In this document: positions 14,937-64,000 of the stretch, one piece after another
Layout: the number at the start of each line of letters is the position of its first letter
Numbering within the stretch: the first letter of the stretch is position 1
Assembly: GCF_044324875.1 (NCBI RefSeq)
Contig: NZ_CP172185.1
Source: Escherichia coli
Lineage (GTDB): Bacteria; Pseudomonadota; Gammaproteobacteria; Enterobacterales; Enterobacteriaceae
DNA length: 64,000 nucleotides
Reading direction: 5' to 3' (one strand)
Made by a program: the position numbers and the translations under genes
Notes under the pieces: model-generated
Told to the model about the DNA's origin: nothing
Seen by the model: only the letters and a program-made list of their open reading frames with translations
Databases searched by the model: none

Positions 14937-15081
14937 ATTACCTTAAGAAAGATAAGTACAGTTTGCTTTCCTGGAGATTAATGCATGCTCTGGATAGCAA
15001 TCCTCAACTATCAGCAGAAAGTAGATAAAATTTCAGGGTGGCCCTATAAAAATCATTAGATGCGTTTCTGACGTTACTTAG

Positions 15082-15393
<312 letters not shown>

Positions 15394-15454
15394 TTACTGA
15401 TTTAGTGTATGATGGTGATTTTAAGTAAGCGACTCGTCAGAACCGTATTGATAT

Positions 15455-17026
15455 TTACTGAGAGCTCAGATCAACTTTCCAGGGCAACAGATCGCGTACC
15501 CGGTTTGCCGGCCAGTCCTGGATATGTTCAATGACGTAACGCAGCCACTTTTCTGGCTCCACATTGTTCAGACGGCATGTGCCGATCAGCGAGTACAACA
15601 CCGCCGCATGTTCACCACCGCTGTCGGAACCCGCGAACATCCAGTTTTTCCGGCCTACGGCCACTCCCCGTAAGGCGTTCTCTGCGATGTTGTTGTCGAT
15701 TTCCACCCAGCCATTACTGCAGTACACGTTCAGTGCATCCCACTGTTTCAGCAGGTATGCGAACGCTTTTGCCGTATCTGAGTGACGCGACAGTGTTTTC
15801 ATCTGTTGCTGTATCCAGTCATACAGTGACTGCATCAGTGGCGCGGCTCTGGCTTTTCTTGCCGCCAGACGCTGTTCTGCTGAACAGCCCCGGACCTCTG
15901 CCTCGATGGCATACAGTTCACCGATACGCTGCAGGGCTTCCGTGGTGATGTAGGTGGGCGCTCTTGCATGCACATCGTGGATTTTTCTCCGGGCATGAGC
16001 CATACACGCGGCTTCCGTTATTCTGCCGGATTCGTATAACGCCCGGTAACCACCGTAAGCATCGGCCTGAAGCACACCGCTGTAACCGGCCAGGTGATTT
16101 TGTGGATGGATACCTTTCCGGTCCGGACTGTACGCGAACCAGACCGCCGGGGGCATCTGTGAACCGGCGTTACGGTCATCACGGACGTAGACCCACAGCC
16201 GGGCTGTCCGGGTTTTACCGCTGCCCGGCTCCTGGACCGGGACGGGGATATCATCAGCATGGACTTTACCGGGCATCAGCACATACTGGCGCAGGACGTC
16301 ATACAGCGGCTCCAGCAGTTCAGCAACAGCACCTGTCCAGCGCCCCAGTGTGGCACGGCTCAGCTCCACTCCCTGACGACGGTATATTTCTGACTGGCGG
16401 TATAACGGCAGATGGTCTGCATATTTCCCGGTGACAACATGGGCCAGAAGCCCCGCTCCGGCATAACTGCGTGCAATGGGTTTTGAAGGTACTGGTGCCT
16501 GCACGATATGGTCGCACCGGCAACAGGCCTGTTTCGGACGTTGTGTTTCGATAACCTTAAAGGCGCTGCTGATAAGCTCCAGTTGCTCTGACACATCACA
16601 TCCCAGAGAACTGAGTTCACCACCACAGGCAGGACAGCATTCCTCTTCCGGCCGGATAACCCGGGTTTCACGGGGAAGTGAGGCCGGTAACGGTTTACGG
16701 GCTGAAGACTGGCGCAGGGCGGATGGCAGTACCGGGTCATATTGCTCACCCAGCGTTTCCGCCATTTCTTCCTGAAGTGCGCTGATTCGCTCCTGTGCTT
16801 CCTGTATCTGCCGTTCGGTTTTTGCACGAAGTTTTTCTGAGCTTTTACCGAACTGCATACGTTGCAGTTTCGCAACCAGCGCCTTCAGCCGGTTGATTTC
16901 GGAAGCATAAGCCGCCACCCGCTGTGAGAGCAGGCGGTTGTATTCAGCCATCTGGCGGATGGTGTCCTGTTGCGTCTGCAACAGTGCCCGCAGGCGGGCG
17001 TTCTCATGAGCAAGTGAGGTGTCCAT
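15455..17026 (-). CDS. tnpC: IS66-family transposase TnpC
   Basis: 523 aa with N-terminal coiled-coil/leucine-zipper region, CxxC zinc motif and DDE core typical of IS66 transposases. Confidence 0.85.
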
Positions 17027-17045
17027 ATCCTCACTTTACAACGGG

Positions 17046-17393
17046 TTATATGCGGATTCCAGCGCGTTCCGTTCGTTTCGGGTGCTTCCAGTTGATACCT
17101 TCAAGAAGCATGGATAACTGAGCCGGAGTAAGGTGCACCTTGCCGTCACGGGTGACTGGCCAGACGAAGCGGCCCCGCTCCAGGCGTTTGGTGAAGAGGC
17201 ACAGTCCGTCACTGTCAGCCCACAACACTTTTATCTGGTCACCCCGGCGTCCGCGGAAGATGAACAGGTGTCCGGAGAACGGGTCATCCTTCAGGACGTT
17301 CTGAACTTTTGATGCCAGGCCGTTAAAGCCATTTCGCATATCGGTGATACCTGCAACCAGCCAGATACGCGAACCTGCAGGGAGAGATATCAT
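17046..17393 (-). CDS. tnpB: IS66-family Orf2 (TnpB)
   Basis: 115 aa; MISLPAGSRIWLVAGITDMRNGFNGL... is the conserved IS66 Orf2. Confidence 0.85.
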   Translation of the reverse strand: MISLPAGSRIWLVAGITDMRNGFNGLASKVQNVLKDDPFSGHLFIFRGRRGDQIKVLWADSDGLCLFTKRLERGRFVWPVTRDGKVHLTPAQLSMLLEGINWKHPKRTERAGIRI

Positions 17394-18070
17394 CAGTGGC
17401 TGCTCCCTTTTATTTCGCGGATAAGTGTCTGTAATAACGCCGGCGTCAGTTTACCTTTAAGCCTGAGAGTTCCGGCCGGCAGAACCAGCTCACAACACAG
17501 ACTGTCGGACGGTGTATTTATCTGCTCTGGTTCCTGTGCGGGGGCCGGGATTTTATTATCCGGCTCCGGCGTTAACGTCACGGGAAGCAGTGCCGGCATA
17601 TTTTTTCCGGAAGGCAGCAGGCCACCTTTCCGGTATTGATGGCGCCAGTTGAAGAGCAGGTTATCGTTGATTCCGTTTTCCCGGGCGATCTGCGCCACAC
17701 AGGCTCCGGGCTGCAGTGACTGCTCCACTAAGGCGATTTTAAACTCATAAGGGAAGTTGGGCCGCCGGGGACGTTTTTTTACCACGGGGGCTTCGGATAT
17801 AACGGTGCTTTCAGGACGTACGACTGGTACCGTGGAAAATTGTCCGTAAAGGCAGGCATCAAGTTCCTGCTCCGACATGCCTGCGGGCAAAGGCCACGAA
17901 AGGCCAGCTCTCCGAAAGCGCACGAACATACTACAAACTGTTGATTTTGGTACACCCAGGCGACGCCCGGCCACAACCCGGGGTAAATGTTCTTCAAAGT
18001 GAAGACGTAAAGCTTCAGTGATCCAGGTCCGGTGTTTCATACGATAGTGTCCATTAAAAATGATGGACAT
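17393..18070 (-). CDS. tnpA: IS66-family accessory protein (TnpA); true start uncertain, probably internal
   Basis: ORF immediately upstream of and overlapping tnpB (ATGA overlap) in the canonical IS66 arrangement. Confidence 0.6.
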   Translation of the reverse strand: MSIIFNGHYRMKHRTWITEALRLHFEEHLPRVVAGRRLGVPKSTVCSMFVRFRRAGLSWPLPAGMSEQELDACLYGQFSTVPVVRPESTVISEAPVVKKRPRRPNFPYEFKIALVEQSLQPGACVAQIARENGINDNLLFNWRHQYRKGGLLPSGKNMPALLPVTLTPEPDNKIPAPAQEPEQINTPSDSLCCELVLPAGTLRLKGKLTPALLQTLIREIKGSSH

Positions 18071-18140
18071 TATTTTTGTAGAGCCGGAGGAAACAGACCA
18101 GACGGTTTAAATGAGCCGGTTACGATTTTAAGGTGCTTGC

Positions 18141-18416
18141 GTGGCTTCCATTTCCATCAGATGTCCTTCCTGCTCCGCTACTGAAGGCGTGGTGCGTAAC
18201 GGCAAAAGCACTGCCGGACATCAGCGCTATCTCTGCTCTCATTGCCGTAAAACATGGCAACTACAGTTCACTTACACCGCCTCTCAGCCCGGTACGCACC
18301 AGAAAATCATTGATATGGCCATGAATAGCGTCGGATGTCGCGCCAGTGCACGCATTATGGGCGTTGGCCTCAACACGGTTTTACGTCACTTAAAAAACTC
18401 AGGCCGCAGTCGGTAA
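18141..18416 (+). CDS. insA: IS1 InsA
   Basis: 91 aa, [43 protein letters not shown]... matches IS1 InsA. Confidence 0.9.
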
Positions 18417-18790
18417 CCTCGCGCATACAACCGGGCAGTGATGTGATTGTCTGCGCTGAAATGGACGAACAGTGGGGCTACGTCGGTGCTAAATCACGTC
18501 AGCGCTGGCTGTTTTACGCGTATGACAGGATACGGAGGACGGTTGTGGCGCACGTCTTCGGTGAACGCACTCTGGCCACACTGGAGCGTCTTCTGAGCCT
18601 GCTGTCGGCCTTTGAGGTCGTGGTATGGATGACGGATGGCTGGCCGCTGTATGAATCACGCCTGAAGGGAAAGCTGCACGTTATCAGCAAGCGTTACACT
18701 CAGCGCATTGAGCGACATAATCTGAATCTGAGATCTGGCAAGGCTGGGACGGAAGTCACTGTCGTTCTCAAAATCGGTGGAGCTGCATGA
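18335..18790 (+). CDS. insB: IS1 insB' frame (expressed as InsAB' transposase by -1 frameshift)
   Basis: Overlaps insA in another frame; translation matches IS1 InsB. Confidence 0.85.
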
Positions 18791-19430
18791 CAAGGTCATC
18801 GGGCATTATCTGAACATAAAACACTATCAGTAAGTTGGAGTCATTACCAACGGTAAATATCCATAAGTGTGGGCTTGCGGAATAAATAGTTTGGTTAAAG
18901 ATAAGGTGGTTTAATACTGCTGAGTATTTTATAGGAGATATGATGTTGTTTTATAAACAAACTAAAAAACATGAAGTTTAATTGATAGGGGACAATGAAA
19001 TCTCCTTTTTAAACTCAATTGCTATGTTGGGTTTATGGGGTTGCTATAAACGGTTTTGAATAAACGCTTTACTATTCTCATGAAAACAGTGTTATGTTGT
19101 TATTTTAACAACCCCGCATTGTTTTTTGATGGGATGGGTATTAAGACTTTAGAGAAACTTTATAAATAAATATATGTATTCAATAGTGGCGAAAATAATA
19201 ACCCATCTTATTATTACATTGTGGAAGTGCTCTTTTTTATTATCGCTCATGTTTTACCTTTCTGTTAAAACATATTCTTTCGGATATGTAAAATGGTAAG
19301 AGATAGTTAATCTACGTATGCATGGGGGCGTTTCATTGCATGGCGTTATAATCTGGCTTGTATATAAAGGCACTATAAGTTTTACTCTTACAGTGCCTTT
19401 ATTTGGCCATGATTTACCCTCTACAATAAA

Positions 19431-21818
19431 TTAATCATTACAGGATAGGTTCATATTCCATTCATAAGCCTCAATGCCGTTAATCAGTAGTTGACGACTT
19501 TCTCCCTGAGGAATTATCACTTTCAATGTTTCCCATGCAGGGCGATAATCTCCATGAGTGTTTATTCTTAACTCAATTGTAGTGGCTGTGCAGTCCAGCT
19601 CCCATTCAAGCCACAGAGCATTACCTTCAGTATATCCCCAAGTTTCGCCATCATCTTCAAACAGAAGTCCGGTGGATTTACCCGTTCCTTTAATTGGGAA
19701 TAATTTCAATTTACGATGATTATCTTCCGCTTCACTCACGTATGTTATACGTTCACTAAGAGGAATACCTGCACCTGCACGTACTAATAATGGTAGTTTT
19801 TCCAGTGGCGCGTCGATTGTTATCCATTGACCACCACAGAACCATTCGCCATTGTAAAAGTCGTACCATCCTGTTTTGTTGTCGGGTAACCATACTCGTC
19901 GTTGTCGTTGCCCTGCTTCCACGACACTTGCAACCAGAATATCGCGTCCCAGCATAAAATCATCACATTCTTCAAATGTCTGAACATCGTGCTCATGATC
20001 AAGGAAGGTTGGACGTAATATTGGCTCATCATCGGCATGTGCCTGCCACAATAATGTATATAAATAAGGCATAAGACGATAACGTAACTCAATTGCACTA
20101 CGAATCGCGGGTGTTACTTCCGGATACATCCATGGTTCATTGACAGTATGATCATCATTCCACGAGTGGATCGTAAATCGGGGGTGCATAACACCGTTCT
20201 GAACCCAACGAACAAATAATTCTGGATCAGGCTTATCACCAGAAAAACCACCGACATCATGACCAATGTTATACAATCCTGAGAGGCTCATTCCCAGCCC
20301 CATGCGGGTGTTGTATCGAAGGGTATCCCAGTTAGTTCGGTTGTCCCCACTCCATGTCTGAACATAACGCTGCAATCCGGCGCATCCAGAGCGGGAAATC
20401 AAATATGGTCGTTTGTTCGGTGCAAATTTTTGCTGTGCTTCCATAGATGCTCTGCACATTAAAAGAGGCATTACTGGCCGAATGTGTTTAATGGCGATTT
20501 CTTTGCCAAAACCATGACAGCGCGCTTCCCCATCCCATACTTCAAACTCATTGTTATCATTCCAGGTGGAATCAATTCCCATTTCAAGTAGTTGTGTGGT
20601 TACACCTTCCTGCCACCATGCGACTGTTTGTGGGTTCGTAAAGTCCAGATGAGAACCCTCATCATCCCAGAAGCTGGAGCGTTCCGGGACGTTGTATTCA
20701 GAGTCACGAATAAAGAGCTCTTGTTCTGCTACTTCGTTATAGCGAGGATGATCCTGCAATAAACATGGTTTTATATTAGCGGCCAGGTGTATCCCTGCAT
20801 TATGAAACTCCTGACTCATCATTTTAGGGTGTGGAACTTTGTCGTAATTCCAGTTGAATACGTAGCGTTTACCATTAATAGAAGTATAACCAGAAGATAG
20901 CTGGAAAGAATCACATGGAATAGCATGTTCCTTACAAAGACGAATAAACTGCATCAATTGATTCTGAGCATCCGGTGCATCTGTATAGTGCATCGTGGAA
21001 CCGCTGTACCCAAGACTCCATTTTGGACCGAAGAGTGTTTTCCCCGTCAAACGAACAAAGGCTTTGGTGATATCAAGTACACATCTGCCAGTGAAAAGAT
21101 AATAATCAATATCTCCCGCCTCAGCCTGCCAACGGCGGTAAGTTGTATGATAATTATCTATTTCATTACCTAAATCCAGCCAACTATTGCTGAGGTTATC
21201 ATAAAATAATCCAAAGCTAATATCGCTACGGTGAGTAATTGTAAATGGAATATGTTTATAAAGAGGGTCTGTACTTACTGCATTATATCCCATTGCGTCC
21301 AGGTTCCGCATTTCATAGCGTTTTCCTGTGCGTTGCAGATCCCCGGATTTATCACCAAGTCCATAAAAACGCTCGTCATTACGTCGACTTTGATAGTGTG
21401 CAACACCATCACCATGAGCGTTTATCAGATAAGCACTGGTAGGGCGATCATTAACAAGTTCCTGCCACTGACCAGCATTATCCTTATAATGCCATTCAAG
21501 CCATAAAGGCTTGTGAATAATTACGCGTAATGAACTGGTCGTGATTGTCAGTAATTCATCATTCTGCTCCATGTTCCAGGTCGGCAGTGAAAAACCGCTA
21601 ATATCTTCGCGATGACGCCCTTCCCACGGGACATCCTTTTCCGGAGCAATGCTCCAGGTTCGGTCCAGCGACAAAACCCCCTTCCGTTTTAATAGAACCC
21701 GGAACATATTTTCTTCGAGTATATACAGGCAAAGAGAATGCTGACCATCAACTAATAGCTCTATATGATGGGCTGACTGATTTTGTAGTTTCCAGTTTTT
21801 TAATGTTTTCATCTCCAC
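19431..21818 (-). CDS. GH31 alpha-glucosidase / alpha-xylosidase family glycoside hydrolase
   Basis: 795 aa; GH31 nucleophile-region motif GIDSTWNDNNEF (variant of WIDMNE); AT-rich codon usage; followed on the minus strand by a hairpin (19366..19400). Confidence 0.75.
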   Translation of the reverse strand: MEMKTLKNWKLQNQSAHHIELLVDGQHSLCLYILEENMFRVLLKRKGVLSLDRTWSIAPEKDVPWEGRHREDISGFSLPTWNMEQNDELLTITTSSLRVIIHKPLWLEWHYKDNAGQWQELVNDRPTSAYLINAHGDGVAHYQSRRNDERFYGLGDKSGDLQRTGKRYEMRNLDAMGYNAVSTDPLYKHIPFTITHRSDISFGLFYDNLSNSWLDLGNEIDNYHTTYRRWQAEAGDIDYYLFTGRCVLDITKAFVRLTGKTLFGPKWSLGYSGSTMHYTDAPDAQNQLMQFIRLCKEHAIPCDSFQLSSGYTSINGKRYVFNWNYDKVPHPKMMSQEFHNAGIHLAANIKPCLLQDHPRYNEVAEQELFIRDSEYNVPERSSFWDDEGSHLDFTNPQTVAWWQEGVTTQLLEMGIDSTWNDNNEFEVWDGEARCHGFGKEIAIKHIRPVMPLLMCRASMEAQQKFAPNKRPYLISRSGCAGLQRYVQTWSGDNRTNWDTLRYNTRMGLGMSLSGLYNIGHDVGGFSGDKPDPELFVRWVQNGVMHPRFTIHSWNDDHTVNEPWMYPEVTPAIRSAIELRYRLMPYLYTLLWQAHADDEPILRPTFLDHEHDVQTFEECDDFMLGRDILVASVVEAGQRQRRVWLPDNKTGWYDFYNGEWFCGGQWITIDAPLEKLPLLVRAGAGIPLSERITYVSEAEDNHRKLKLFPIKGTGKSTGLLFEDDGETWGYTEGNALWLEWELDCTATTIELRINTHGDYRPAWETLKVIIPQGESRQLLINGIEAYEWNMNLSCND

Positions 21819-21826
21819 ATACTCCC

Positions 21827-23128
21827 TCAGGTGCGTTTTTTGCGACGTTCTGCAATAAAAGTAACCAGAAAAAAAGCACCAATAAGATCAAAAAATCCCA
21901 TGGCGATAAATAGCGGGTTAAAGCCTATTTTGTCAGCAGTAACGCCAATAATCAGTGAGAACAAAAAGCTGGCAATCCATGCGGCTGAACCACGCATTCC
22001 ATTAACAGTGGCCATCTGCCCCTTATCAAAAGATTCAACGACCAGGGCACTTAACATGCAGGAAATTATCTGATGACCAAAACCACCAATGGAGATAAGT
22101 ACAATAGCAATATATGGATTGTCGATAAAAGCAATCACAGCAAGCGAAACCATTAGAAATGCTCCGCTTACAGAGGACGCAATAACAGAATTTACTCTGC
22201 TTAACCCAAACAGACGGGTATAGAGTTTTGTCAGATATCCGCTGGCAATACTTCCTAAATCAGCGCAAAGAAATGGTAACCATGCAAACAGAGCTATTTG
22301 TTTAAGGTCCATGCCATATGCTTTTGCAAGATATAATGGCACCCAAAAGCTCATTACAGCCCATGCTGGCTCTGCCATAAATGCAGGGATAGCGATTCCA
22401 TAAAAGCGTTTATTTTTACTAACTGTTTTTAACGCGGTCAGAAAAGGCATTTTTACCGGAGGAGCTTCGTTATCCTGTCGGATAAAGTTGAGCTCATTTT
22501 TACTTAAGTTTGGGTGCTCTTCTGGTGTGTTATAACACGCCCACCAAAGGAAAACCCAAAGAATTGCAAGTGCACCTGTAAACATAAATGCACCCTGCCA
22601 ACCAAATGACGCATGTGCAAAGTAAATAATTGGTGGTGCAAGCATTGCACCGATAGAAAAACCGACACCCGCCCAGCCAGCAGCAACAGGACGTTCAGAT
22701 TTTGGAAACCACTCACCTATAATTTTTGCATTTGCAGGTGTCGCAGAAGCCTCAGCACCTCCCATGAAAAAACGAAGCAACGCAAGCTGTATCCAGCTTC
22801 CTGCTCCTGCATGCAGAAGACAAGCAATTCCCCATAATGAAGCACAAATCATAAATCCAATCTTGAGCCCAATAACATCAATTAGCCATCCACAAAGTGG
22901 CTGAAAAAGGGTATATGCAAGCTGAAATCCACCAACAATCCAGGAGTATTGTTCAGTTGTAATTCCAAGGCTGTCTTTTAACTCTGGTGCCAAAATACCT
23001 AATGAGTTTCTGGTAATATAATTGACAGTGACACCCATTAGAAAAAGGATTAACATCCACCACCGTAGTTGTCTTATTATTCGACGGTGTTTGCTGACAG
23101 CTATATTATTATTTATATCCTGACTCAT
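21827..23128 (-). CDS. MFS sugar/sugar-acid transporter (ExuT/ACS-like)
   Basis: Start taken at MSQDINNN (ATG complement at 23126..23128) with an upstream purine-rich SD-like sequence; 12-TM hydrophobic profile; 8 bp downstream gap to the GH31 gene. Confidence 0.7.
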   Translation of the reverse strand: MSQDINNNIAVSKHRRIIRQLRWWMLILFLMGVTVNYITRNSLGILAPELKDSLGITTEQYSWIVGGFQLAYTLFQPLCGWLIDVIGLKIGFMICASLWGIACLLHAGAGSWIQLALLRFFMGGAEASATPANAKIIGEWFPKSERPVAAGWAGVGFSIGAMLAPPIIYFAHASFGWQGAFMFTGALAILWVFLWWACYNTPEEHPNLSKNELNFIRQDNEAPPVKMPFLTALKTVSKNKRFYGIAIPAFMAEPAWAVMSFWVPLYLAKAYGMDLKQIALFAWLPFLCADLGSIASGYLTKLYTRLFGLSRVNSVIASSVSGAFLMVSLAVIAFIDNPYIAIVLISIGGFGHQIISCMLSALVVESFDKGQMATVNGMRGSAAWIASFLFSLIIGVTADKIGFNPLFIAMGFFDLIGAFFLVTFIAERRKKRT

Positions 23129-23389
23129 AATCACCCCACCGGATGTAATAAATGATCGAGCGACAACGCAGCTCGGGGTTGCCACATCCCACTTTACCTT
23201 TCGGCTTAATACTTAAACCGGAACTACTCATTCACAATAAAAGAGGGGGGCGATGAAAAAAAGTTGGTATTGTGCACGTTTTTTCATAAGTAGTTCATAT
23301 AAATTCTAAAAATAGTCAGAAGTCCTTGCAGTCAGGCTATTCCATCCCATGAGAATTTTTTCATTTTGAAATTAGAGATAGATCACAAT

Positions 23390-24460
23390 ATGGAAAAAAA
23401 ACTAAAGATTGCTGATATTGCCATGCGAACAGGCCTTTCATCCAGCACCGTGTCACGGGTTTTAGCGGGTAAAGCTAATACCAGTTATCGTGCCCGCGAG
23501 AAAGTATTGGCGTGTGCCAGAGAGCTTGGGGTTATGGATGGAATGGCATCCGGCCGTATGTTGTTAAACAACCTTGTCATTTTTGCTCCTCAACGGGCTT
23601 TTGATGAGCGAACAGACATTTTTTATTTCCGCGTAATCCAAAGCATCAGCAAGGCATTATCGCATTATGAGGTTCGGTTGCGTTACTGTGCCCTTGATGA
23701 GTTCGATAGTACACCTTCAAAATTCCTGGCGCGCATGAATGAGGCAGAAACACAGGCTGCAATATTGCTTGGTATTGATGATCCTCATATACATGATCTT
23801 GCAGCAGATTTTTCTAAGCCGTGCGTAATGATTAACTGCCATGATCGACGTATGCGTCTTCCCACAGTTGCTCCAGATCACAAAAACATTGGTGCTTTTG
23901 CGTCTCACTTTCTGTTTGAAATGGGGCATCGCAGAGTAATGAACATTATGTGTTTACGTCGATACACAATGGAACTGCGACTTGCCGGAATTAAAGAAGC
24001 ATGGGAGAGACAGAATCAGAACTTTAAAGATGACAGAGATTTACTCACTATTAATAGTTTCAGCGCCAAAGAAGCCGAAGAAAAAGTCGGAGCATGGCTG
24101 GATATGACAGAGAAAAGTATGCTACCGACTGCTTTTTTGGCAAGTGGGGACTTCATTGCTGCAGGTATAATTAACGCTTTAAAAAAACGTAATATACGAG
24201 TGCCACAAGATGTGTCCGTAATGAGTATTGATGGGTTTAATCTGGCTGCAATAGAAGATGTGCCACTTACGGCAGTACATGTACCTCGCGATGAACTGGG
24301 TACTGAAGCGGTACATATGTTACAACAAAGACTTGTACGTCCTGATGCAACTGTTGGTGCATTACTTTTGTATGGGAAACTGGTAATACGAGAATCTGTT
24401 CGCCGTATACGGCCAGGGAAAGAGCCAACTCCGATTAAAGGAGATGGACTGTATGACTGA
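23390..24460 (+). CDS. LacI/GalR-family transcriptional regulator, divergent from the MFS/GH31 operon
   Basis: N-terminal HTH LKIADIAMRTGLSSSTVSRVLAGK; periplasmic-binding-protein-like sugar-binding domain; start chosen at MEKKLK. Confidence 0.75.
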   Translation: MEKKLKIADIAMRTGLSSSTVSRVLAGKANTSYRAREKVLACARELGVMDGMASGRMLLNNLVIFAPQRAFDERTDIFYFRVIQSISKALSHYEVRLRYCALDEFDSTPSKFLARMNEAETQAAILLGIDDPHIHDLAADFSKPCVMINCHDRRMRLPTVAPDHKNIGAFASHFLFEMGHRRVMNIMCLRRYTMELRLAGIKEAWERQNQNFKDDRDLLTINSFSAKEAEEKVGAWLDMTEKSMLPTAFLASGDFIAAGIINALKKRNIRVPQDVSVMSIDGFNLAAIEDVPLTAVHVPRDELGTEAVHMLQQRLVRPDATVGALLLYGKLVIRESVRRIRPGKEPTPIKGDGLYD

Positions 24461-24857
24461 AACCACAGCCTCTGATTCTTCCGGTCAAGGGAAAATAAGC
24501 GTAATGTTCATCACCAGATTATGTACGATGAGTTTTCCACTGTTTATAGCAATTATCTTGCTAATAACCAGACAGGAGTAACCAGACCAACCGAAAACAC
24601 CGGGAAGGTGATTACCCGCTGGCAGAGGAAATCCGGTTTTTTTTGATGTCAGCCATAACGTGTTTGACAATAAAGCATTATGAAAGGGTGTTAATGAGTC
24701 CATGGGATAATTCATAAAAATAATTTACTGTGTTATCCTTTTCAAAAGAAATATTCAGAAGATAACCCCTGGCTGACAACCAGGGGAAGGGGACATTAAC
24801 AGTGTTATTATTGGTGGATAAATTATTACTTGTGTGCAGGATACACTAATGCAATAT

Positions 24858-25901
24858 CTACTGATACTGTATGCCAGTATGTTTCATGCCTGCCGCTGAA
24901 AACGGCAATATCCAGGGCCAGACATATTCACCATTCATATTTCTGCATTTCTGTACAATTTTTTCAGAAAGCGTCTCATCAATTCTTTCACGCAACTTCT
25001 CCTGCTGTCTTAAAATACTTTCGCATATTTCGAAATCACCTTCCTGCATCAGCATTTCGGCGCATTTAATGATTTCTGCCCGTTCATGCAGCACAGAGGA
25101 ATGATTATAGAGCCAGTTTACAAACAGCAATGCTTCCGGATATTGTCCCCATAATGGTGAGTATGTTGCATAGTAATCTTCTGCCGTATCCAGAGAGCCG
25201 GAGAAGTCATGCCACACAGCAAGTGGAAATGGATGCAGATTTCCGCACAGCATTTCTGCGATGTAAGTGTTTGTGGCAAAGCCATGGCGAAAATCTGTGG
25301 CGGCCTTAACATGTTCCCCGTTCAGAAAATGCAGGAGACCGAGTTCATACCAGTAAGGTGAAAATTCATCAGCATGCTCTTTCAGTACACTGAAGGCTCG
25401 CTCATGATCGCCGGTGCGTAACAGCTCTGAACCCAACAACCAGCGAGCCCCCTGATTATCTTCAGGATTGTATGCCAGTATTTTATCAGTGAGCATAACC
25501 GCATCCTGATGGCGCTGTAAGTGCACATTTGCGAGAATTGCTGCATAAAGCGCGCGCAGATAAGGCCGGTTTTCGGGATGCATCCAGATTATTTCACCAC
25601 AGAAACTTTCCGGGATGATACGATTACCTGCCGCCAGTCCTTTAAGAGCGGCGTTCAGTGCCTTACGCGGGGCATTCTGTTCCAGAAATGCATATGCCAG
25701 ATGAGCGTGTATATCAATAAAATCCGGCTCCCGTTGAGCAAGGCGTCGGAGTTTGTTGATGTAACTCGTCTCGCTGATTTCATCAGCGTCGTATGCATCA
25801 AGCACTTCTTCAAACTCCCCCAGCAATGGGCCAAACCAGGTATCCGGAAATACGAAATAACCCTGGTTATCGTGCACTTCAAAGCATAATCTATCGTTCA
25901 T
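24858..25901 (-). CDS. Hypothetical protein, helical repeat (TPR-like) architecture, function unknown
   Basis: 347-aa ORF, AT-rich; sequence is mostly helical-repeat-like with no catalytic motif I recognise. Confidence 0.5.
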   Translation of the reverse strand: MNDRLCFEVHDNQGYFVFPDTWFGPLLGEFEEVLDAYDADEISETSYINKLRRLAQREPDFIDIHAHLAYAFLEQNAPRKALNAALKGLAAGNRIIPESFCGEIIWMHPENRPYLRALYAAILANVHLQRHQDAVMLTDKILAYNPEDNQGARWLLGSELLRTGDHERAFSVLKEHADEFSPYWYELGLLHFLNGEHVKAATDFRHGFATNTYIAEMLCGNLHPFPLAVWHDFSGSLDTAEDYYATYSPLWGQYPEALLFVNWLYNHSSVLHERAEIIKCAEMLMQEGDFEICESILRQQEKLRERIDETLSEKIVQKCRNMNGEYVWPWILPFSAAGMKHTGIQYQ

Positions 25902-26311
25902 TTTCTGAGCCTGTAAAACATGTGGTGATATAGTCTGAGAGCATAAAAGTTGAGATTCTGTGTATCAAGTCCTGTCTTGGCACTGAATGAATATTGCTTA
26001 CAAAGCCCCTTCATGCTTTCCTTGAGAACAATAATTTTATCTTTATGTGAATCTCATTTTTTATAATGATGTCAGATGATTGAAATGCTAAATTATATCT
26101 GAATCAACTTTTCCTTTGCTAAAGGTATCGAAATAACTGCAAGGCTGTATTTTGTAATTGCCAATTTTAAAATGTCAATTTGCTTTTAATTATGTTTTTG
26201 TAATAAGTTTGAAGACGCAAAAAATAATATAATAACAAAAATCCTCCAGCCTTGTAGGCCAGAGGATAAAATACTTAATTGAGGAAAACATCAGGGAAAA
26301 GTATTTTTGAC

Positions 26312-27496
26312 TTAACTTTCCCGGCTGGAGAGTGAATCAATGTAATCAGCGTACCATTGCATCATTTCACGGCGGCCATCGAGATACAGGGCATGATTAT
26401 AGGTACCCCTGATGGAATTTTTATCCACATGAGCTAACTGCATTTCAATCCAGGCGGAATTAAAGCCTTGTTCATGCAGAATTGTACTCATGGTGTGTCT
26501 GAAACCGTGCCCTGTGAGTCTTCCCTTATATCCAAGTAATTCAATTACTTGGTTAATGCTTTCCTTACTAATTGGTTTGCGGGGATCATTTCTACCGATA
26601 AAGACTAGGGGATGATGTTTTGAGATTGGTTCAAGCTGCTTAAATAGCATAATGACCTGCTCAGAGAGCGGCACAATATGAGGTCGCTTCATCTTCATTA
26701 CTTCTGCCGGGATCTCCCACAATTTTGTCTCAAAATCGATATCTTCCCAGCGTGCAAAACGCAGTTCTTGTGTTCGTACGCCGGTTAACATAATGATCTG
26801 AGTAGCTGTCTTAGTGATTATACTTCCGGTATAACCCGCCAGATCGTTGAGGAAGTGGGGAAGTTCATTAGCAGTAAGAAAGGGAAAATGTACTTTTTTC
26901 GGTGTAGCTAAAGCACTGGCAAGATCGGGGGCTGGGTTATAGTCTGCCCGGCCAGTAACAATTGCATAGCGGAACACCTCACCACAGCGCTGGCGGACCT
27001 TGCGCATTTTCTCCAGAGCTCCACGTTTTTCCATTTTACGCAGTGCTTCCAGTAACTCCATTGGTTTGATTTCGGCAATAGGGCGCTTGCCAATGTAGGG
27101 AAAAATGTCTTTTTCAAAGGTATCAATGATTTCATCACGATAGCGTAATGACCACCGATCGGCTTTTGACTGGTGCCATTCGCGAGCAATAGCCTCGAAC
27201 GTATTTTGCAGACTCATTTGCTGCGCGATTTTTTCTTCCTTTTTTGCCTCCCCTGGATCGCCTCCAGCAGCGAGGAGTTTCCTGGCTTCACTGCGTTTCT
27301 CGCGAGCATCGGCTAGCGTTACATCGGGGTATACGCCAATAGAAAGCATCTTTTCTTTACCAGCAAAGCGGTACTTCATGCGCCAGTATTTAGAACCATT
27401 AGTGTTAATCAGTAGATACATACCGCCGCCATCAGCAAGCTTATAGGGTTTGTCTTTGGGTTTTGCGGTTTTCACTTTGATATCGGTTAATGCCAT
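26312..27496 (-). CDS. int: P4-type tyrosine integrase (island integrase)
   Basis: 394 aa; N-terminal MALTDIKVKTAKPKDKPYKLADGGGMYLLI... typical of P4-family integrases; C-terminal catalytic region with H-x-x-R and Tyr; about 300 bp from the tRNA-Sec 3' end. Confidence 0.9.
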   Translation of the reverse strand: MALTDIKVKTAKPKDKPYKLADGGGMYLLINTNGSKYWRMKYRFAGKEKMLSIGVYPDVTLADAREKRSEARKLLAAGGDPGEAKKEEKIAQQMSLQNTFEAIAREWHQSKADRWSLRYRDEIIDTFEKDIFPYIGKRPIAEIKPMELLEALRKMEKRGALEKMRKVRQRCGEVFRYAIVTGRADYNPAPDLASALATPKKVHFPFLTANELPHFLNDLAGYTGSIITKTATQIIMLTGVRTQELRFARWEDIDFETKLWEIPAEVMKMKRPHIVPLSEQVIMLFKQLEPISKHHPLVFIGRNDPRKPISKESINQVIELLGYKGRLTGHGFRHTMSTILHEQGFNSAWIEMQLAHVDKNSIRGTYNHALYLDGRREMMQWYADYIDSLSSRES

Positions 27497-27795
27497 GACA
27501 TCCTCCGGCTTTTGATGAATTCATGTTCCTGAGGGGGATTTCTGCCAGTAACTAACCTGATACCCCCAATACACCCCTTGTATAACAAAGATGTTGTTAA
27601 AAGCCGTTGTTATATATCATATTTTTCCTATTATGGGGGTGCTGGTATTTCAATAGGAAATAACACCCCCTAAAGTACCCCCAAAAGAAACTTGATACGG
27701 GGTGAAGTAGGTTGACCTCTGGATACAAATAAATACTGATATACAAGGGATTAGAAGAGATTTATTGACATTGGGAGAGTTCAGAAGAGGTAAAC

Positions 27796-27890
27796 TGGCG
27801 GAAGATCACAGGAGTCGAACCTGCCCGGGACCGCTGGCGGCCCCAACTGGATTTGAAGTCCAGCCGCCTCACCGGAGACGACGATCTTCC
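27796..27890 (-). tRNA. selC: tRNA-Sec (selenocysteine), anticodon UCA
   Basis: Minus-strand sequence GGAAGATCGTCGTCTCCGGTGAGGCGGCTGGACTTCAAATCCAGTTGGGGCCGCCAGCGGTCCCGGGCAGGTTCGACTCCTGTGATCTTCCGCCA matches E. coli selC; long variable arm. Confidence 0.95.
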
Positions 27891-49941: not shown

Positions 49942-52330
<2,389 letters not shown>

Positions 52331-60901: not shown

Positions 60902-62666
<1,765 letters not shown>

Positions 62667-63017
62667 AGTAAATAGCTGACTTATGGATGTGCTGGGGATT
62701 CTATGTATTTAGCTGTGGCTTTACCATTACTTTTCCCGTTTTTGACTTAAATAGCAATTTAGCCGCCAATTCTTGCTGAACATCTATACTTTTTTTGTAT
62801 TTTTATGCGTTTCATTGATTTCTGCAGTACGTGCAGGAAGGAATCGCAGAGCAACAGTGAAAGAATATGGTTGCTAATGATTTTATTTGATTGATTTCTT
62901 TATTGAAAATCAACAATGTGCTTAAAAATCATTCGGGTCGGATTGCCGCGAAAGAAGTGATACACTAGCGCGTCAATATCAGTGCGGTATCAGTATTCAG
63001 GTAGCTGTTGAGCCTGG

Positions 63018-63029
63018 GGCGGTAGCGTG
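63018..63029 (+). promoter_or_regulatory. ops element (GGCGGTAGCGTG) within the JUMPstart leader of the waaQ operon
   Basis: Exact ops consensus about 85 bp upstream of the waaQ start; known RfaH recruitment site. Confidence 0.8.
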
Positions 63030-63114
63030 CTTTTTCTGCTTCACCTTAATCGGATAATCTCAACAAAAAGAGTTACTTGTGGATAAGCCATTTCGAAGAA
63101 TTTTGCTCATTAAG

Positions 63115-64000
63115 ATGCGTTTTCATGGGGATATGTTATTAACTACTCCCGTCATTAGTTCGCTGAAAAAAAATTACCCTGACGCAAAAATCGATGTGCT
63201 GCTTTATCAGGACACCATCCCGATCCTATCTGAAAATCCAGAGATTAACGCGCTCTACGGCATAAAAAATAAAAAAGCAAAAGCCGCAGAAAAAATTGCC
63301 AACTTTTTTCATCTCATCAAGGTATTACGTGCCAATAAGTATGACCTTATCGTTAATCTTACCGAACAATGGATGGTTGCTATACTGGTTCGCTTATTAA
63401 ATGCCCGTGTGAAAATTTCCCAGGATTATCATCATCGGCAGTCTGCTTTTTGGCGTAATAGTTTCACTCATTTGGTGCCGTTGCAGGGTGGAAATGTGGT
63501 GGAAAGTAACTTATCCGTGCTGACACCATTGGGACTTGATTCGTTGGTGAAGCAGACAACCATGAGTTACCCGCCTGCAAGCTGGAAACGTATGCGTCGC
63601 GAACTTGATCACGCTGGTGTTGGACAAAATTATGTGGTTATCCAACCTACGGCGCGGCAAATCTTCAAATGTTGGGACAACGCCAAGTTTTCCGCTGTGA
63701 TTGATGCCTTACATGCTCGTGGTTATGAAGTCGTTCTGACGTCCGGCCCAGATAAAGACGATCTGGCCTGCGTCAATGAAATTGCGCAGGGATGCCAGAC
63801 GCCACCAGTAACGGCGCTGGCTGGAAAGGTGACCTTCCCGGAACTTGGTGCGTTAATCGATCATGCGCAGCTGTTTATTGGCGTTGATTCCGCACCGGCG
63901 CATATTGCCGCTGCAGTTAATACGCCGCTGATATCGCTGTTTGGTGCGACAGACCATATTTTCTGGCGTCCATGGTCAAATAACATGATTCAATTCTGGG
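63115..64000 (+). CDS. waaQ: LPS heptosyltransferase III WaaQ, 5' part (gene runs off window end)
   Basis: Translation from the ATG at 63115: MRFHGDMLLTTPVISSLKKNYPDAKIDVLLYQDTIPILSENPEINALYGI... Confidence 0.85.
   Translation, partial: MRFHGDMLLTTPVISSLKKNYPDAKIDVLLYQDTIPILSENPEINALYGIKNKKAKAAEKIANFFHLIKVLRANKYDLIVNLTEQWMVAILVRLLNARVKISQDYHHRQSAFWRNSFTHLVPLQGGNVVESNLSVLTPLGLDSLVKQTTMSYPPASWKRMRRELDHAGVGQNYVVIQPTARQIFKCWDNAKFSAVIDALHARGYEVVLTSGPDKDDLACVNEIAQGCQTPPVTALAGKVTFPELGALIDHAQLFIGVDSAPAHIAAAVNTPLISLFGATDHIFWRPWSNNMIQFW

Follow-up and report, generated by a model that had tools for sequence, protein, structure and literature searches.

An intact ops element within the JUMPstart leader of waaQ in Escherichia coli, with a role in RfaH recruitment assigned by homology to K-12

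All experimentally validated RfaH targets carry the 12-nt ops element in their leader (PMC5995543), and the waa operon, of which waaQ is the first gene, is regulated by RfaH (PMC5449661). The locus considered here, in a 64-kb stretch of E. coli DNA (referred to as the window, meaning the whole stretch analysed), raises the question of whether the ops-like 12-mer upstream of waaQ is the counterpart of the K-12 element or a chance resemblance, and whether the leader around it also acts as RNA. The ops sequence matches the consensus pause of RNA polymerase, which halts at U11, and the G12C substitution removes the pause (PMC5995543). The pause-inducing TG at positions 11-12 is shared with the consensus elemental pause of the E. 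coli enzyme, whereas the central bases 3-8 are specific to RfaH in ops and variable in generic pauses (PMC5995543). RfaH reads a small hairpin in the non-template strand, with a C3:G8 pair and a flipped-out T6; recruitment is lost on substitution of G4, G5, A7 or G8 and falls approximately 3-fold on substitution of C3 or T6 (PMC5995543).

A sequence search of the window places an exact ops 12-mer, GGCGGTAGCGTG, at 63018-63029 on the plus strand, as the first-pass annotation had claimed. It is the sole exact copy on either strand, compared with 0.01 expected by chance in dinucleotide-preserving shuffles. That annotation had named a mismatch to the ops consensus as the result that would overturn it; alignment with the consensus GGCGGTAGnnTG gives zero mismatches, and the RfaH-contact bases C3, G4, G5, T6, A7 and G8 are all present together with the pause bases T11-G12, which places the expected polymerase pause at T11 (63028). 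The element is located on the non-template strand of waaQ, within the leader upstream of the first gene of the operon, and starts 45 nt beyond the counterpart of the MG1655 rirA/waaQ 5' end, that transcript start having been transferred by homology.

The 12-mer sits in a 412-bp spacer (62667-63078) between two divergent genes. On the minus strand is waaA (Kdo transferase, 61389-62666), a 425-aa ORF with waaA annotated at the homologous place in GMF054, C600 and MG1655; on the plus strand is the 5' part of waaQ (heptosyltransferase III, 63079-64000), which runs off the end of the window. The waaQ protein matches PRK10422 (the NCBIfam RfaQ equivalog) with 628 bits against a cut-off of 467, and TIGR02201 with 545 bits against 170, both scores resting on the portion inside the window, 307 of approximately 352 residues. 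In strain GMF054, which is 99.8% identical over the stretch, the downstream gene is annotated rfaQ and is the first of nine co-oriented LPS-core genes that follow the site, up to the O-antigen ligase. The earlier placement of ops ahead of waaQ of the LPS core operon is borne out by the PRK10422 match and by this annotation. The remainder of the operon lies past the end of the window at 64000, and rfaH is likewise outside the window.

The leader had been described as JUMPstart-like, and it matches the Rfam JUMPstart model (RF01707) over its full length (62991-63029, plus strand; model positions 1-38 of 38), with a cmscan score of 55.2 bits (gathering threshold 35; E=8e-12), the ops 12-mer forming its 3' end. 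This is the only cis-regulatory RNA match in the window among Rfam families. The structure line of the Rfam alignment gives a 5-bp hairpin, CAGGU-N9-GCCUG (62998-63016; arms 62998-63002 and 63012-63016), located between the 5' CAG box and ops. Standard pairs are kept in this stem in all 20 aligned leaders, with a single double-sided change (A-U to G-C, in Pluralibacter gergoviae) and G-U variants elsewhere. The JUMPstart elements of other RfaH-dependent operons (rfb/O-antigen, capsule, haemolysin and tra; RF01707) share the 5' CAG box, the 5-bp hairpin and the 3' GGGGCGGTAGCGTG. The waaQ type differs from them by a second box, CAGTGCG (62980-62986), an arrangement found in nearly all aligned waaQ leaders, with GACACG at that place in Cedecea. 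The waaQ-type JUMPstart has two CAGT boxes, CAGTGCGGTAT and CAGTATT (62980-62997), of which Rfam aligns the second; the first, 11 nt further upstream, is the predicted partner of the ops RNA.

Conservation was assessed within E. coli and across genera. Of 5426 complete E. coli genomes, 5424 contain a 71-bp segment surrounding ops with an identity of 90% or more, and in 4412 records the identity is at least 99%. Over the wider leader region (534 bp), 4400 of the 5425 matching records have at least 99% identity and K-12-like strains approximately 80%; the window carries the common E. coli allele, shared with an R1-like strain and with O157:H7 strains, and not the K-12-like allele. The check proposed in the first-pass annotation, alignment with the K-12 waaQ leader, finds the 12-mer, JUMPstart and about 110 nt of leader (62923-63035) nearly invariant, most of the divergence lying in the distal spacer and on the downstream side of ops. 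The two loci have the same gene order and strand between waaA and waaQ, and the ops element, the JUMPstart hairpin sequence, the −10 box, AAGAG and GTG are identical in MG1655. Outside the conserved block the MG1655 spacer is approximately 80% identical to the window, with indels of 13 nt and 8 nt. Comparison of four E. coli leader alleles shows no change in the ops 12-mer. The block of promoter, JUMPstart and ops is hence a sharply conserved island in a spacer that otherwise differs by approximately 20% between E. coli alleles.

The flanks of this island (62667-62922 and 63036-63078) carry the ~20% difference and the two indels relative to K-12-like alleles, and the waaA-proximal ~90 nt of the spacer are near-identical to them again, which suggests that a recombination boundary of the waa cluster lies inside the waaA-waaQ spacer. 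In E. coli E2 an ISVsa5 element (IS4-like; L004, 696-1904) has inserted into this spacer approximately 190 nt upstream of ops, leaving the promoter block, JUMPstart and ops intact.

Beyond E. coli, a scan of 100,044 species genomes with the pattern GGGGCGGTAGCGTGCTTTTT returned 28 loci, and in 22 of these a waaQ homologue follows 60-65 nt after the start of the pattern. These 22 come from Escherichia, Citrobacter, Salmonella, Kluyvera, Pluralibacter, Silvania, Cedecea, Intestinirhabdus and one enterobacterial MAG. Alignment of 20 leaders recovers a TGnTACACT box, the JUMPstart hairpin, an invariant AAGAG and an invariant GTGGA. The same 20-mer (ops followed by CTTTTT) precedes non-waaQ genes in four genomes (L013, 639-658; L017, 2253-2272; L034, 4445-4464; L022, 2388-2407, minus strand). 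As judged by reading the ORF sequences, the following gene is phage-tail-tube-like in Serratia plymuthica, UDP-glucose-dehydrogenase-like in Marinospirillum, Wzz-like in Marinobacter and GNAT-like in Vreelandella, and these four loci are likely to be further RfaH-type targets. The 20-mers at L007 and L010 occur in GC-rich MAGs, each within a long antisense ORF, and seem to be chance matches; approximately 0.5 such matches were estimated for a 20-mer in the genomes scanned.

A functionless chance match at 63018-63029 is scarcely credible against this background. The one observation in its favour is that the window has two further copies of the 8-nt core, GGCGGTAG, giving three against 1.3 expected, a chance-level count; opposing it are the very low expectation for an exact 12-mer, the conservation of the orthologous position across E. 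coli and other genera, and the embedding of the 12-mer in a full JUMPstart, and the chance reading is already refuted by the conservation and the JUMPstart model score. The element at 63018-63029 is instead, with a probability of about 95%, the orthologue of the ops/JUMPstart element of the E. coli K-12 waaQ leader, its role in RfaH recruitment being assigned by homology to K-12. No result of the analysis contradicts this assignment. The element is intact and ordinary; the waaQ ops/JUMPstart element is already known and is a textbook case.

The two additional core copies, at 52118 (plus strand) and 55676 (minus strand), are antisense to yicG and pyrE, as judged by collinearity with strain GMF054, and were rejected as further RfaH sites on account of this orientation and their chance frequency. 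The first of these sites is also where the ops-like 12-mer closest in sequence, GGCGGTAGCGAC at 52118-52129, is found, antisense to yicG. Ten ops-like 12-mers with at most two mismatches occur in the window against 4.4 ± 1.7 in shuffles, an approximately twofold surplus that probably reflects base composition or codon usage. No context comparable to the waaQ leader surrounds any of the nine other sites.

Elsewhere in the window, Rfam places tRNA-Sec (selC) at 27800-27890 on the minus strand with 83.8 bits. APEC BEN2908, the genome that matches best, has a tyrosine integrase adjoining selC and then a carbohydrate-utilisation island, corresponding to approximately 15000-27800 of the window. This region is a selC-inserted genomic island, and contains GH31 and GH32 hydrolases, OmpG-type porins, MFS transporters, LacI regulators and remnants of IS66, IS3 and IS1. 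Coverage of at least 80% of window positions 15000-39999 is found in only 190 of 5426 E. coli genomes.

The distance from ops to waaQ depends on which start codon is used. The end of the 12-mer is 85 nt from the in-frame ATG at 63115-63117, which alignment shows to be the equivalent of the curated MG1655 waaQ start (344 aa; MG1655 waaQ, 3807064-3808098), and 49 nt from a GTG at 63079. The earlier figure of about 85 bp upstream of the waaQ start consequently holds for the MG1655-style ATG but not for the GTG, which is the likelier start, because it is used by PGAP in GMF054, C600 and EC-16-35, because the PRK10422 alignment runs from the first position of the profile (residues 1-307, counted from the GTG, to profile positions 1-307), and because the intervening codons are conserved with a codon-position pattern. 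The 12 codons from the GTG to the ATG specify the conserved peptide V[DE]K[PLQ]F[RK][RKN]IL[LVI][IV]K; in codons 2-12, among 21 distinct sequences, the first, second and third codon positions have 5, 3 and 8 variable columns respectively. Each of the 22 waaQ leaders from other genomes keeps the GTG itself, and tblastn alignments begin at residue 1, counted from the GTG, in 22 genomes. The curated MG1655 start is therefore probably 12 codons too short.

A weak Shine-Dalgarno-like AAAGAG is located at 63067-63072, 6 nt before the GTG, and its AAGAG is invariant in all 20 aligned leaders. RfaH-dependent operons are described in two reviews as being without a ribosome-binding site; the conserved weak box is a nuance to that statement and not a contradiction of it.

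A point absent from the first-pass annotation is that the same leader also encodes an equivalent of the small RNA RirA. MG1655 annotation has a 73-nt ncRNA, rirA (b4760), at 3808166-3808238, and alignment places its 72-nt equivalent in the window at 62973-63044 on the plus strand, where it also forms the 5' end of the waaQ leader transcript; the RirA ends are those of the MG1655 annotation and the reviews. The alignment is end-to-end, with 67 of 73 columns identical (approximately 92%), the differences from MG1655 being five substitutions and one T fewer in the T-run (T5 in the window, T6 in MG1655). Consistent with the description of RirA as sharing its start with the waaQ mRNA and containing ops and JUMPstart (reviews PMC5736990, PMC8745692), the window equivalent contains both elements. 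A discrete RirA transcript is reported for K-12 only (PMC6358824, PMC5736990, PMC8745692), and rirA is without PGAP annotation in the strains examined.

Six nucleotides before the 5' end of the rirA equivalent ends a putative extended −10 box, TGaTACACT (62958-62966, plus strand), whose T, G and TACA-T do not vary among 20 leaders drawn from several genera. We infer that this TGnTACACT box is the extended −10 promoter of waaQ/rirA, because of its homologous position relative to the MG1655 rirA 5' end and its conservation across genera. A simple sigma-70 scan did not flag the box, a good −35 element is absent, and the only promoter-like matches of that scan are at 62880-62932, upstream of the conserved block.

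Since ops lies within the RirA sequence, RNA-level roles have to be weighed alongside recruitment of RfaH by DNA. Folding predicts a long imperfect hairpin at 62981-63031, followed by five U residues at 63031-63035, in which the ops RNA forms the 3' arm and AGUGCG..UAUC the 5' arm (MFE −18.7 kcal/mol, z=−1.9). It is doubtful that the conserved block acts mainly as RNA, either as a cis-regulatory hairpin or as the body of RirA, with DNA-level recruitment of RfaH secondary, although several observations point that way: Rfam treats JUMPstart as a cis-regulatory RNA whose stem has 5 bp, the single compensatory change (A-U to G-C) falls in that stem, pairing of the long hairpin is preserved in 97.6% of cells in the 20-leader alignment, K-12 RirA folds better than shuffles (z=−2.3), and overexpressed RirA binds RfaH in K-12 in an ops-dependent manner (PMC6358824, PMC5736990). 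The covariation of the long hairpin is however not significant in the 20 leaders, with the observed value reached by 146 of 500 shuffles, and the test is uninformative for the 3' arm, whose sequence the search pattern dictated. One-sided variation is seen in eight pairs, and every change in the 5' arm is a transition opposite G or U, bases that can pair with both alternatives. In the window, the full RirA equivalent folds no better than shuffles (z=−0.66), and neither do the 39-nt JUMPstart alone or the 107-nt leader; position 62987 is G in the window where K-12 has T, which turns a predicted U-G pair of the long stem into a G-G mismatch. RNA and DNA roles are, in any case, not mutually exclusive.

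Intrinsic termination usually occurs approximately 7-9 nt past the stem. The annotated 3' end of RirA lies shortly downstream of the predicted hairpin, which fits in outline with a leader attenuator or weak intrinsic terminator formed by the hairpin (62981-63031) and the U-run, where RfaH-free polymerase would stop and release RirA and RfaH-modified polymerase would read through; at approximately 15 nt past the stem, however, that end is further away than intrinsic termination usually gives. The predicted stem is followed directly by U5 (U6 in K-12) and a T-run follows ops in all leaders retrieved, the search pattern itself having required at least five T, yet two of the six pairs in the lower stem are G-U, which makes it weak. 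A simple terminator scan of the leader found none, its loop limit of 3-8 nt being one that would not admit the composite stem. RfaH is reported to lower termination at some factor-independent sites (PMC2871177), while a terminator goes unmentioned in the papers examined here. On balance we consider such an attenuator unlikely. More speculative again is the proposal, built on the modelled fold, that ops RNA might have a second, RNA-level role across enterobacterial waaQ leaders, pairing with AGUGCG..UAUC to form an attenuator that releases an RfaH-titrating RirA; if true, this would amount to a self-limiting feedback loop built into one 72-nt segment.

The preferred reading remains that of an ops element recruiting RfaH as in K-12, from which the following sequence of events would be expected. 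RNA polymerase would start at approximately 62973 and pause at T11 of ops (63028), with a nascent RNA of 56 nt if the start is indeed 62973. The exposed non-template strand of ops would fold into the small hairpin with paired C3 and G8 and an extruded T6, and autoinhibited RfaH would bind this hairpin via its N-terminal domain, whereupon its C-terminal domain would refold into a β-barrel that contacts ribosomal protein S10. RfaH would remain on the polymerase, lessening pausing and blocking Rho/NusG-dependent termination, and with termination blocked the entire long waaQ operon for the LPS core could be expressed. Short transcripts of the first ~72-73 nt, corresponding to RirA, would carry ops and JUMPstart as RNA; in K-12, overexpressed RirA binds RfaH when polymerase is present and lowers waa and rfb expression.

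Confirmation of the ops element brings no new biology. Judged from its sequence, the point at which RfaH controls LPS-core synthesis is intact in this strain; the pathway affects outer-membrane integrity, serum and detergent resistance, and virulence.
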